IMG/VR virus record: IMGVR_UViG_2693429524_000019
Coordinates: 1 to 32,064 of that record
Strand: one strand, 5' to 3'
DNA length: 32,064 nucleotides
Origin: a virus
Lineage: Duplodnaviria > Heunggongvirae > Uroviricota > Caudoviricetes
The notes under the pieces: generated by a model
What the model saw: the letters and a program-made list of their open reading frames with translations, nothing else
What the model was told of the DNA's origin: nothing
Databases searched by the model: none
Shown here: positions 26,215-29,510 of the stretch, piece by piece
Position numbering within the stretch: the stretch's first letter is position 1
How the letters are laid out: each line of letters starts with the position of its first letter
Translations under genes and position numbers: made by a program

Positions 26215-26375
26215 GATAACGCCCTCTGGTTGATGAATTTAACTATCACCACCGTCAGGTTCCAATCATTGGGTGGTGAGACGTACAGGGTTGGAACTAC
26301 CGGATCAACCAACCGGCGAGCCTTTCGGCTCCCCCATACGCCCCACCATAATTCAGATGTGCGTGTGCTTACGAC

Positions 26376-26400
26376 AATAAAAAACACGCTCGCGGCGTGT
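26376..26400 (-). terminator. intrinsic terminator ~90 bp downstream of Q (tR'-like candidate)
   Basis: minus strand ACACGC-CGCGA-GCGTGT followed by TTTTTATT. Confidence 0.5.
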
Positions 26401-26488
26401 ATCTGTCGCGGTTGAATATCCGGGGTTCCAATCCCGACGCCAGATTTTGCTGGCGCGTGAGGAATATAGCCCCGGATAACAGATTGAG

Positions 26489-28252: not shown

Positions 28253-28395
28253 ATAGAGACAAAAATATTAATCTGAAAAATATTTATTTCACGTCGTATA
28301 TTTGATTATTTAATGTGCAGGTGCAATGACTTTTATTTTTTGTTGTGTATATAATCAAATATATGGTTATTTTTCACCCTGCGTATTCAGCGCGC

Positions 28396-28420
28396 AACAA
28401 AAAACCCGCCGAAGCGGGTT
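28396..28420 (-). terminator. intrinsic terminator at the 3' end of the hok transcript
   Basis: minus strand AACCCGC-TTCG-GCGGGTT followed by TTTTTTGTTG. Confidence 0.55.
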
Positions 28421-28488
28421 AAGTGCGGGTGCGTTGAGGATGCCTGACACATGAGAGGTGGCGAGGGATTTTTCCCCCGCCTGGTCTC

Positions 28489-28644
28489 TTACTCCTCAGA
28501 TTCGTAAGCTGTGAAGACAGCGACCTCCGTCTGGCCGGTACGGATTCGTACCTCGCAGAGGTCTTTCCTCGTTACCAGTGCCGTCGCTATGACGGTTAAA
28601 CAGATGACGATCAGGGCGATTAACATCGCCTTTTGCTGCTTCAT
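28489..28644 (-). CDS. hokD: Hok/Gef family type I membrane toxin, HokD (RelF)-like
   Basis: 51 aa MKQQKAMLIALIVICLTVIATALVTRKDLCEVRIRTGQTEVAVFTAYESEE, near-identical to recalled HokD; SD AAGGAGAAG upstream. Confidence 0.8.
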   Translation of the reverse strand: MKQQKAMLIALIVICLTVIATALVTRKDLCEVRIRTGQTEVAVFTAYESEE

Positions 28645-28854
28645 AGCCTGCTTCTCCTTGCCTTTCGGCACGTAAGAGGCTAACCTACATTTGTGAGACA
28701 TAGATTGGGCCTCAGATTAATGTTAAGCGTCCTGCAAGACGCGTAATGTTAACTGGGGCTTTTCTCTATCTGCCGTTGGTGTTCATGCCTGAGGCAGATA
28801 GCCTCAAGCACCCGCAGCAATTCTACTTAACTCTCCTTTTCCCGCAAACCGTTT

Positions 28855-28938
28855 TTATCCCCAGCGGCAAATCGAATACACAATCAGCGCCACCGCCATT
28901 GCGATTCCTACCGTTGTGAATGCTTCAGGCCAGGTCAT
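28855..28938 (-). CDS. candidate 27-aa hydrophobic peptide (single TM), translationally coupled to upstream gene
   Basis: MTWPEAFTTVGIAMAVALIVYSICRWG; ATG overlaps the stop of the 191-aa gene (ATGA); GGAGG 10 nt upstream; not in the ORF track because it is under 60 aa. Confidence 0.3.
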   Translation of the reverse strand: MTWPEAFTTVGIAMAVALIVYSICRWG

Positions 28939-29510
28939 CGTAAAATATCCTCCGCGCTTATCAGTCCGTTTCGCTTCAGGTAGACCATCGCCTTCTCCGG
29001 TAATTTGCAGTTCGGCTTCGCTTTCCTCAATTGGCTAGCCAGTTGTTTAATCAGCATTGTTAATTCCCGTACCTGAACGTCCCCTTTGGTATCCTCATTG
29101 GTGAGGATACCATCGCCTTTCCCCTGAAGCATGGCGGCGCAGCAGGCGTTCCATGAGATTTCCTGAAGGGAGCGACGAATCTGTGTGCTGCATATACTCC
29201 TCCCTGACTCCTGGCTGTTAAACCATGTTTCAAATTCCGGCACTACCGTCGCTGGCGGGGCGGTGTAAAGTGGAACAACTCGCCCTCCCCATTGCTTAAC
29301 ACTACTCTCAGCGAACACTAAATGCTCAGCCCGATAATACCCGGGGGCATCAATATCTTTTCTTTCGCTATCCCACATGTAAACCACCGGCTCTGCTTCC
29401 AGCGATGCCAAAGCAATCCGTGCCACTTCCATTTGTTCGCTACGAGTAAGCCCGTTTTCAAGCGGATTTTTAATGAACAATTCAATACGTTCTTTGGTGA
29501 TAGCGTTCAT
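28935..29510 (-). CDS. hypothetical phage protein (paralog A)
   Basis: 191 aa, SD AAGGAA; shares RIALASLEAEPV and PLY..PPA motifs with the next gene. Confidence 0.5.
   Translation of the reverse strand: MNAITKERIELFIKNPLENGLTRSEQMEVARIALASLEAEPVVYMWDSERKDIDAPGYYRAEHLVFAESSVKQWGGRVVPLYTAPPATVVPEFETWFNSQESGRSICSTQIRRSLQEISWNACCAAMLQGKGDGILTNEDTKGDVQVRELTMLIKQLASQLRKAKPNCKLPEKAMVYLKRNGLISAEDILR

Follow-up and report, generated by a model that had tools for sequence, protein, structure and literature searches.

A probable complete hok/mok/sok toxin-antitoxin module of the hokW/sokW type at a hokD-like locus of a lambdoid prophage

Introduction

How is a HokD-like toxin kept silent in a lysogen when relBE is absent? 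The question is raised by a 51-aa ORF in a 32,064-nt stretch of viral DNA (IMG/VR record IMGVR_UViG_2693429524_000019, positions 1 to 32,064), which is called the window in this report. In K-12, hokD (relF) is the third gene of the relBEF operon in the Qin prophage. The original prediction, made from the letters of the window, described the ORF as a near copy of HokD without relBE, and considered its silencing unclear.

Our analysis makes it highly probable (about 0.92) that the region from ~28397 to 28847 is a type I toxin-antitoxin module, hok/mok/sok, in its complete form and of the hokW/sokW type found in prophages, which would be regulated in the same manner as R1 and hokW. This kind of system is already known: a near-identical homologue has been annotated in phage 933W and experimentally studied in Sp5.

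Results

The toxin gene and its K-12 counterpart

The toxin gene hok is located at 28489..28644 on the - strand. The 51-aa product is identical to K-12 HokD at 49 of 51 residues (V20A and P49S are the differences) and matches the Pfam family HOK_GEF over the entire profile (positions 1-42 of 42) with 82.4 bits, the cut-off being 22; the relationship to HokD was thus predicted correctly. With the NCBIfam Hok subfamily model, the score of the window Hok was below the cut-off (49.9 vs 73). The expected Shine-Dalgarno (SD) sequence, GGAG at 28654-28657, is present 9 nt before the hok AUG.

The absence of relBE was confirmed. When K-12 RelB and RelE were searched for by tblastn and relBE DNA by blastn (blastn-short) in the whole 32-kb window, only chance-level matches were obtained; the best E-value was 0.15, and no relB or relE remnant was detected near the locus.

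By blastn, K-12 hokD and its flanks are 97.3% identical in DNA to window 28400-28658, and the homology is limited to this segment, which begins shortly before the hok SD and extends over the 3' UTR, fbi and the terminator. In a three-way alignment with the window and 933W, the K-12 sequence upstream of the equivalent of 28658 is the end of relE. In K-12, relB-relE take the place of the promoter, tac, ucb, the mok start and sok, and the 70-codon ORF described below does not exist. The original prediction that K-12 hokD is without its own control leader was confirmed by these observations. It has been reported that K-12 hokD is a derived form, in which an ancestral ORF of ~70 codons was cut to 51 by relBE integration (PMC6379469), and K-12 hokD is counted among the loci inactivated by rearrangement (PMC12214031). 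Judged by its sequence, the window locus is the intact form of the gene named hokD in K-12.

The leader and the mok frame

A covariance-model search for Sok-like RNAs and the mok, tac, ucb and fbi elements had been proposed with the original prediction. The result was positive, and the family is a known one. In an Rfam scan of the window, RF01794 (sok; hok/sok) matched at 28639..28813 (-) with 116.4 bits (gathering score, 59), and model positions 1-157 of 157 were covered. The RF01794 model has the orientation of the hok mRNA, and its last position is at the hok AUG; hence, it covers the hok leader with the Sok target and, on the opposite strand, the sok gene. The scores of the comparison loci were 113.5 bits for 933W hokW, 109.7 bits for K-12 hokB and 87.2 bits for the R1-type plasmid hok; the window locus had the highest score among all loci scanned. 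As a negative control, the K-12 relB-relE-hokD region was included in the same scan, and no RF01794 match was detected in it.

The in-frame upstream ATG noticed previously is the start of mok. The mok ORF (28489..28701, -; 70 codons) is a 19-codon in-frame extension of hok and starts MSHKCRLASYVPKGKEKQA. Its SD, GAGG at 28710..28713 (-), is 8 nt upstream of the mok AUG and is the same motif as the R1 mok SD (PMC9841398). Translation of hok would be coupled to that of mok in the window copy. The 70-codon frame was unbroken in all 32 distinct CDS variants, which represent 81 copies. In 43 of the 81 phage-borne copies, a protein identical to K-12 HokD is encoded together with the full mok/sok leader.

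Promoter and 5' end of the hok mRNA

The putative hok/mok promoter, read from the sequence, is at 28820..28847 (-), with a -35 element TTGCGG (28842-28847), a 16-nt spacer and a -10 element TAGAAT (28820-28825). The hok mRNA would start (+1) with the G at 28813, which coincides with position 1 of the RF01794 model. A consensus promoter scan found neither the hok nor the Sok promoter, as both were below its thresholds, and they were assigned by homology instead. The hok promoter was not reported by the scan because its -35 element agrees with the consensus at only 3 of 6 positions. The sole match of the scan, a promoter-like site at 28326-28355 (+), is downstream of the terminator, outside the mRNA and unrelated to it.

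Nearly all of 80 relatives have preserved the -10 element (as TAGAAT, TAAAAT or TAAGAT), and the sequences diverge upstream of about -20. The upstream sequences fall into at least four unrelated types, across which the -10 element and the precise 5' end are retained. Thus, the module boundary lies between the -35 and the -10 elements. The same conservation bears on the idea that most hok expression comes from transcripts reading through from the phage early operon upstream, in the way that K-12 hokD is expressed from the relB promoter, and that the own promoter of hok is irrelevant. All neighboring genes are on the - strand and co-oriented with hok, and no convincing terminator was found upstream, the only candidate being a weak 5-bp stem at 28885-28898. 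Both features would suit read-through. However, a -10 hexamer and a 5' end that persist in unrelated contexts speak for a promoter that belongs to the module, and the R1 model requires tac at or near a free 5' end (PMC9841398). We regard read-through as the main source of expression as extremely unlikely; it may add to expression during induction without replacing the own control of the hok/mok/sok module.

The Sok antisense RNA

The putative Sok promoter is on the + strand at 28658..28686, with -35 TTGCCT (28658-28663), a 17-nt spacer and -10 TAACCT (28681-28686). Its position is that of TTGCGC/TATCCT in the R1-type hok and of TTGCCG/TAAGAT in K-12 sokB. The sequences of the Sok promoter and the Sok stem are identical between the window and 933W. 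Takada et al. reported that a promoter-less sokW construct lost antitoxin activity (PMC8621323). Judging from its sequence, primer YO-421, in which AGGTTA (corresponding to the -10 TAACCT) is replaced by other bases, appears to have been used to make this construct.

The predicted Sok RNA (28693..28764, +; ~71 nt) comprises a 14-nt single-stranded 5' tail (28693-28706), a long hairpin (28707-28761) and a U-rich tail. The gene is within the RF01794 match, the RNA folds at -28.1 kcal/mol (z = -4.7), and the sokW feature of 933W maps to window 28693..28763 (+). A small hairpin with flanking direct repeats had been noted in the window, and it was found exactly as described: the repeat, TAATGTTAA on the + strand (TTAACATTA on the - strand), occurs at 28718 and 28744 and flanks a GCGTC/GACGC hairpin. 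In Sok, the two TTAACATTA copies make up the arms of the terminator stem, which also includes the GCGTC/GACGC hairpin. Pairing of the arms involves two G-U pairs in Sok; in the mRNA, the equivalent positions are mismatched and give an interior loop in the fold.

These results answer the question of silencing posed above. The original prediction amounted to a hokD-type gene without mok/sok, silenced by an undescribed antisense RNA or by another mechanism. In favor of such a reading, K-12 hokD does lack the leader, and RefSeq names only 'hokD' in the closest genomes, with mok and sok unlisted, by which the locus looks bare. However, the ~170 nt upstream of hok are a canonical hok leader and match a known family over its full length. 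The position of the antisense gene corresponds base for base to those of sokW, R1 Sok and K-12 sokB, and no second strong promoter/terminator pair for another small RNA was found in 28300-29000. A gene for the suspected antisense RNA is therefore present, and the predicted RNA belongs to a recognised family; it is the known Sok of RF01794, annotated as sokW in 933W. We consider silencing by an undescribed mechanism almost certainly wrong. The toxin is most likely silenced in the lysogen by the ordinary route, in which a closed full-length mRNA and Sok would act together.

Folding of the mRNA

The predicted 417-nt hok mRNA folds at -174.7 kcal/mol (z = -7.8 vs shuffles). This folding had also been proposed earlier, and in the minimum-energy fold the two ends of the RNA are paired with each other. 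The element tac (28802..28813, -) is the 5' end of the mRNA, GGGUGCUUGAGG, and it pairs across ~375 nt with fbi (28427..28439, -), CCUCAACGCACCC, which is 29 nt from the 3' end. The helix has 12 bp with one bulge, and the two ends share an exact 9-nt complement. The predicted energy of the duplex is -21.5 kcal/mol, a value reached by 4 of 1000 shuffled 5' ends. In the same full-length fold, the ucb element (mok anti-SD) AAGCCCC at 28756..28762 (-) pairs with the region of the mok SD. The ucb element is homologous to that of R1 (PMC9841398); its partner would be the mok SD when the RNA is closed and tac when it is open.

Adjacent to tac is the 5' hairpin (28766..28801, -). It contains the 9-bp perfect inverted repeat, CTATCTGCC at 28766 and GGCAGATAG at 28793, whose arms (28766-28774 / 28793-28801) had been located exactly in the earlier reading; the repeat is the core of a 20-nt imperfect repeat. 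Thus, the inverted repeat is the conserved 5' hairpin adjoining tac. The 5' half of this hairpin (28785-28795) doubles as the metastable partner of tac, and for a nascent RNA of 35 nt the metastable tac hairpin is the fold with the lowest predicted energy.

When 5' fragments are folded, the remaining states of the R1 model (PMC9841398) are obtained. For both the 60-nt and the 140-nt 5' fragments, the minimum-energy fold has the tac/ucb stem. In the 140-nt fragment, dcb (GCCUC, 28676..28680, -) pairs with GAGGC of the mok SD, which would correspond to the open form and matches the R1 model (PMC9841398). Between the tac/ucb and the mok SD/dcb stems of this fold, a hairpin forms around the mok AUG (28682..28706, -), which is the predicted Sok target hairpin; it forms in the 3'-trimmed fold as well. 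Its loop contains CUCA, which fits a YUNR motif, and the hairpin is complementary to the Sok 5' tail. In the hok/Sok literature, a YUNR loop aids antisense recognition. For the whole 3'-trimmed RNA, the minimum-energy fold from ViennaRNA retains the metastable hairpin, and the R1-like tac/ucb conformer is ~10 kcal/mol higher in energy. Thus, thermodynamic prediction alone does not reproduce the switch.

The structured 3' UTR and the terminator were also as predicted. A hairpin at 28460..28481 (-), GGCGGGGGAAAAAUCCCUCGCC, probably protects the 3' end of the processed mRNA, as in R1 (PMC9841398). The intrinsic terminator (28397..28420, -) consists of a 7-bp stem with five G-C pairs (28403-28420) followed by a T-run, and K-12 hokD has it in common with the window.

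Conservation of the paired regions

For conservation, an alignment was made of 55 distinct relatives that were taken from viral contigs and have 76-95% identity over the locus. With the full-length structure, 95.2% of the cells were paired, compared with 35-42% when the partners were slid. In the 3'-UTR hairpin, two pairs showed compensatory changes. In the 5' hairpin, one pair showed a compensatory A-U to G-C change in 9 of the 55 relatives. The metastable tac hairpin was paired in 100% of the sequences, and its three variable pairs switch only between Watson-Crick and G-U. The tac/fbi helix was paired in 99.1% of the cells, and tac itself varied in 1 of its 12 columns. No tac/fbi covariation was observed within these 55 close relatives, because the helix is nearly invariant; distant loci were needed. 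K-12 hokB pairs GGGUGCCUGAGA with UCUCAUGGCACCC where the window pairs GGGUGCUUGAGG with CCUCAACGCACCC, which amounts to two compensatory changes, and both duplexes were significant against shuffles. The R1-type tac/fbi duplex was not significant by duplexfold, which picked a looped alternative (136 of 1000 shuffles). Thus, the comparison with R1 rests on the literature.

This conservation has to be weighed against the view that the locus is a decayed, non-functional remnant, in which the elements are still recognisable and killing or regulation is lost, as proposed for most K-12 chromosomal hok loci. K-12 hokA, hokC and hokE, like hokD, are reported to be inactivated by IS elements or rearrangement (PMC12214031), and the chromosomal hok loci assayed gave no post-segregational killing (bioRxiv 10.1101/2025.08.07.668861). 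The weak -35 element fits such decay. So does the pN/pS of hok, 0.55, which is moderately below 1 and based on small counts. However, in the window all elements are present and uninterrupted, with the top RF01794 score; the 70-codon frame is intact in every variant; the paired regions are conserved with compensatory changes; and the 93%-identical hokW/sokW is functional (PMC8621323). Moreover, 42 of the 45 Hok homologues assayed were toxic, HokD included. From these points, we judge decay very unlikely and retain the intact hok/mok/sok module as the reading of the locus.

Comparison with hokW, R1 and hokB

In phage 933W (AF125520), mokW (70 aa), hokW (51 aa) and sokW are annotated at the homologous place. 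The architecture of hokW/mokW/sokW in the Stx2 phage 933W and in Sakai prophage 5 equals that of the window, element for element. From a small upstream ORF to fbi, the DNAs of 933W and the window are 92.9% identical, and the whole leader is in common. Mok of the window and MokW are 90% identical, both with 70 aa in frame, and the 51-aa Hok and HokW differ at four residues. Both modules are in a lambdoid prophage and co-oriented with the upstream early genes. The 933W sequence diverges directly after fbi, where it is without the K-12-type terminator. Downstream, 933W has a YgiW/YdeI-like gene, whereas the window has an 83-aa ORF, DUF1367, YbcO and a Q-like gene.

The window RNA elements are also like those of R1 hok/sok (parB) and K-12 hokB/sokB in set and order. 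The common order is tac, its metastable partner, ucb, the mok SD, the target hairpin and dcb; in all three, the Sok promoter overlaps the mok-hok interval, fbi is 29-40 nt from the 3' end, and a terminator is present. In contrast, the R1 and hokB toxins are only distantly similar to the window Hok (HokW and R1 Hok are 44% identical; PMC8621323), and tac/fbi and the Sok tail have other sequences. K-12 mokB is out of frame and ends before hokB, whereas the window mok is in frame. The carrier is a plasmid for R1 and the chromosome for hokB, compared with a prophage for the window.

Variation of the Sok tail

Within the leader, which is otherwise nearly invariant, variation is greatest in the Sok 5' tail, which overlaps the mok start. 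At least nine alleles were observed; the loci were selected by similarity to the window Mok and are a biased sample. The predicted tail-target duplex energies had means of -20.3 kcal/mol for cognate and -9.2 kcal/mol for non-cognate pairs. Between the window and 933W, the tail (mok codons 2-4) differs at 5 of 14 positions (MSHK vs MLNT), and the predicted energies were -4.5 to -8.8 kcal/mol for the non-cognate duplexes compared with ~-20 for the cognate ones. The rest of Sok outside the tail is fully complementary to every allele. One Shigella flexneri genome possesses two copies with identical Hok proteins and different tail alleles.

The 11-14 nt tail, equal to mok codons 2-5, might be a diversifying specificity cassette, by which each of several prophage copies within one cell is controlled only by its own Sok. 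We offer this idea tentatively and consider it rather doubtful. The Shigella genome with two alleles and the predicted duplex energies are compatible with selection for non-cross-reacting copies. In a limited literature search, nothing specific on cross-talk between Sok alleles was found.

Distribution and genomic setting

The 561-bp region of the locus was present in 4734 of 5426 complete E. coli genomes, with at least 80% coverage in 2352; the number of copies per genome was 2 in the median and 10 at the maximum. It was also present in 86 phage records. Enrichment of hok genes in prophages has been reported (bioRxiv 10.1101/2025.08.07.668861). Matches in Collinsella, Xanthomonas pisi, 'Scatousia' and Haemophilus were in MAG or draft contigs of 0.4-3.3 kb; they are probably contamination and were not taken as host range.

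Upstream of hok in the window are several hypothetical or DUF551-type ORFs. Downstream are the 83-aa ORF, DUF1367, YbcO/DUF1364, a DUF1133 Q-like gene and the isrK/C4 RNAs, and these are followed by an ORF6N antirepressor-like gene and then by holin, lysozyme, Rz and terminase. This setting, which immediately precedes the late-gene antiterminator in a lambdoid prophage, is comparable to that of hokD in Qin. Pfam gave no match for the neighboring 27-, 83-, 170- and 191-aa ORFs, and NCBIfam none for the neighboring small ORFs. The 83-aa ORF is as long as K-12 Rem, but tblastn detected no similarity between the two, and it was not assigned as Rem.

Discussion

A mechanism can be proposed for the window locus, whose elements were seen in the sequence and whose dynamics are taken from the R1 and hokW systems. 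The weak promoter would give rise to a stable 417-nt hok mRNA. In the nascent RNA, the local metastable hairpin would hold tac. In the full-length RNA, tac would pair with fbi at the 3' end and ucb would mask the mok SD, so that neither translation nor Sok binding would occur. Slow trimming from the 3' end back to the protective hairpin would remove fbi. After the loss of fbi, tac would pair with ucb and the mok SD with dcb, and the mok-AUG hairpin would be exposed. In the lysogen, the abundant and unstable Sok may bind this hairpin through its 14-nt 5' tail. The binding would block translation of mok and hence the coupled translation of hok, and RNase III would cleave the duplex. When Sok is no longer made, after loss or induction of the prophage or after host shut-off, translation of the processed mRNA would begin, and Hok would depolarise the inner membrane.

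For the window copy, transcription from the two promoters, trimming of the mRNA 3' end, cleavage by RNase III, toxicity and the biological role are inferred from the related systems. In the hokW system, HokW stops growth, and sokW expressed from its own promoter neutralises HokW in a manner partly dependent on RNase III and Hfq (PMC8621323). Mitomycin C depletes sokW and induces HokW, dependent on RecA (PMC8621323). As a speculation, prompted by this depletion and by the co-orientation of hok with the early operon, sense transcripts reading through upon induction might lower Sok by transcriptional interference. In Sp5, the hokW locus helps lysis, and its deletion halves phage release (PMC8621323). 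These experiments would carry over to the window copy by homology only, with the Sok tails differing as described above. Even for hokW, maintenance, help in lysis and phage exclusion are all candidate roles.

As a discovery, the locus has low weight, since the module falls within one of the best-studied antisense-controlled toxin systems. If the observation on the Sok tail holds, the alleles could be of use as naturally occurring, mutually orthogonal antisense/target pairs. If the tail is a specificity cassette, the loss or induction of one prophage would not be masked by the Sok of another. The RefSeq labels, 'hokD' or 'Hok/Gef family' with neither mok nor sok, hide the regulation, by which intact loci can pass for orphan toxins, and the original prediction was misled in this way. 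The relBE-hokD arrangement of K-12 is the exception.

Variability of the Sok tail

In the hok/mok/sok module, nine alleles were found at the segment encoding both the Sok 5' tail and mok codons 2-5 (window 28686-28706, minus strand; alignment A2 columns ~112-133). This segment is hypervariable, and examples of its mok-encoded forms are MSHK, MLNT, MLHK, MNGK, MSSK, MPDT and MLYT. The Sok promoter and the Sok stem, which adjoin the tail, are almost invariant. The predicted energy of the tail-target duplex was about -20 kcal/mol for cognate pairs, whereas the mean for non-cognate pairs was -9 kcal/mol. A single Shigella flexneri chromosome carries two copies of the locus (L093 and L094), which encode identical Hok proteins and have different tail alleles.

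Strand of the RF01794 model

In each of the four loci where the Rfam model RF01794, named "sok antitoxin", had a match, the match lay on the strand of the hok mRNA and ended at the hok AUG (window 28639-28813; L001, the 933W region; L084 and L085). In contrast, the annotated sokW and sokB RNAs lie on the strand opposite to the match. Therefore, what the model represents is the leader of hok and not Sok RNA as such, and its name can lead to a wrong choice of strand.

Module boundaries and neighboring elements

Among the 80 related loci, homology ends between the -35 and -10 elements of the hok promoter (window 28820-28850, minus strand). The same hok -10/+1 region follows upstream sequences of at least four unrelated kinds, which suggests that recombination moves the hok module as a cassette, one boundary of which lies within the promoter of the module. 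At the other side, 933W hokW departs from the window and K-12 directly after fbi (L001 2465-2560 compared with window 28380-28425), and it does not have the GC-rich terminator hairpin of the K-12 type.

Upstream of hok, a hydrophobic ORF of 27 amino acids, MTWPEAFTTVGIAMAVALIVYSICRWG, is located at 28855-28938 (minus strand), and its ATG overlaps the TGA of an upstream 191-aa ORF (ATGA). The intact 27-codon frame is kept in 36 of the 80 related loci, where its distance from hok varies; a diverged form among them is MNWPEAFAITGVAMAIAFLVYVICRWG. The ORF is also present, without annotation, in 933W. No match was obtained in Pfam or NCBIfam. The ORF probably encodes a real small membrane protein, and it does not belong to the hok module.

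A C4 antisense RNA, its a1/b1 targets and isrK were detected side by side at 26269-26469 (minus strand; Rfam 75.6, 50.1 and 77.7 bits). The cluster is directly downstream of a Q-like gene and, going by close relatives, precedes an ORF6N antirepressor-like gene. The arrangement is that of a P1/P7-style antirepressor control cassette within a lambdoid prophage. In 933W, Rfam placed sRNA-Xcc1 about 2.3 kb upstream of hokW (L001 5249-5337, minus strand) at 69.1 bits, above the gathering score of 53, whereas the window had no Rfam match to this RNA at threshold.

The Tyr47 codon of hok

The TACGAA motif at the Tyr47 codon (28499-28504, minus strand) is invariant in 55 relatives, and the neighboring bases vary. 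In K-12, A-to-I editing at this position is reported to change Tyr to Cys in the hokC, hokD and hokE mRNAs, at about 6% in hokD (PMC12214031). Since it is invariant at the position edited in these mRNAs, the motif is likely retained for TadA editing.

Distribution and annotation of the full module

A record named "Actinobacillus phage vB_Apl-pPE4" (PP818812.1; H31) is 97.3% identical to the E. coli-type locus of the window across its full 561 bp, and the Sok promoter segment has exact matches on contigs of 0.4-3.3 kb from assemblies that bear the names Collinsella, Xanthomonas pisi, "Scatousia" and Haemophilus (L089-L092). These records probably reflect contamination or mis-binning, not true hosts.

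Intact loci are named "hokD" or "Hok/Gef family protein" by RefSeq/PGAP, and both mok and sok are unannotated (the relatives L002 and L086, and other RefSeq matches). A protein identical to K-12 HokD is accompanied by the full leader in 43 of the 81 phage-borne copies. Therefore, the relBE-hokD arrangement of K-12 is the atypical form.
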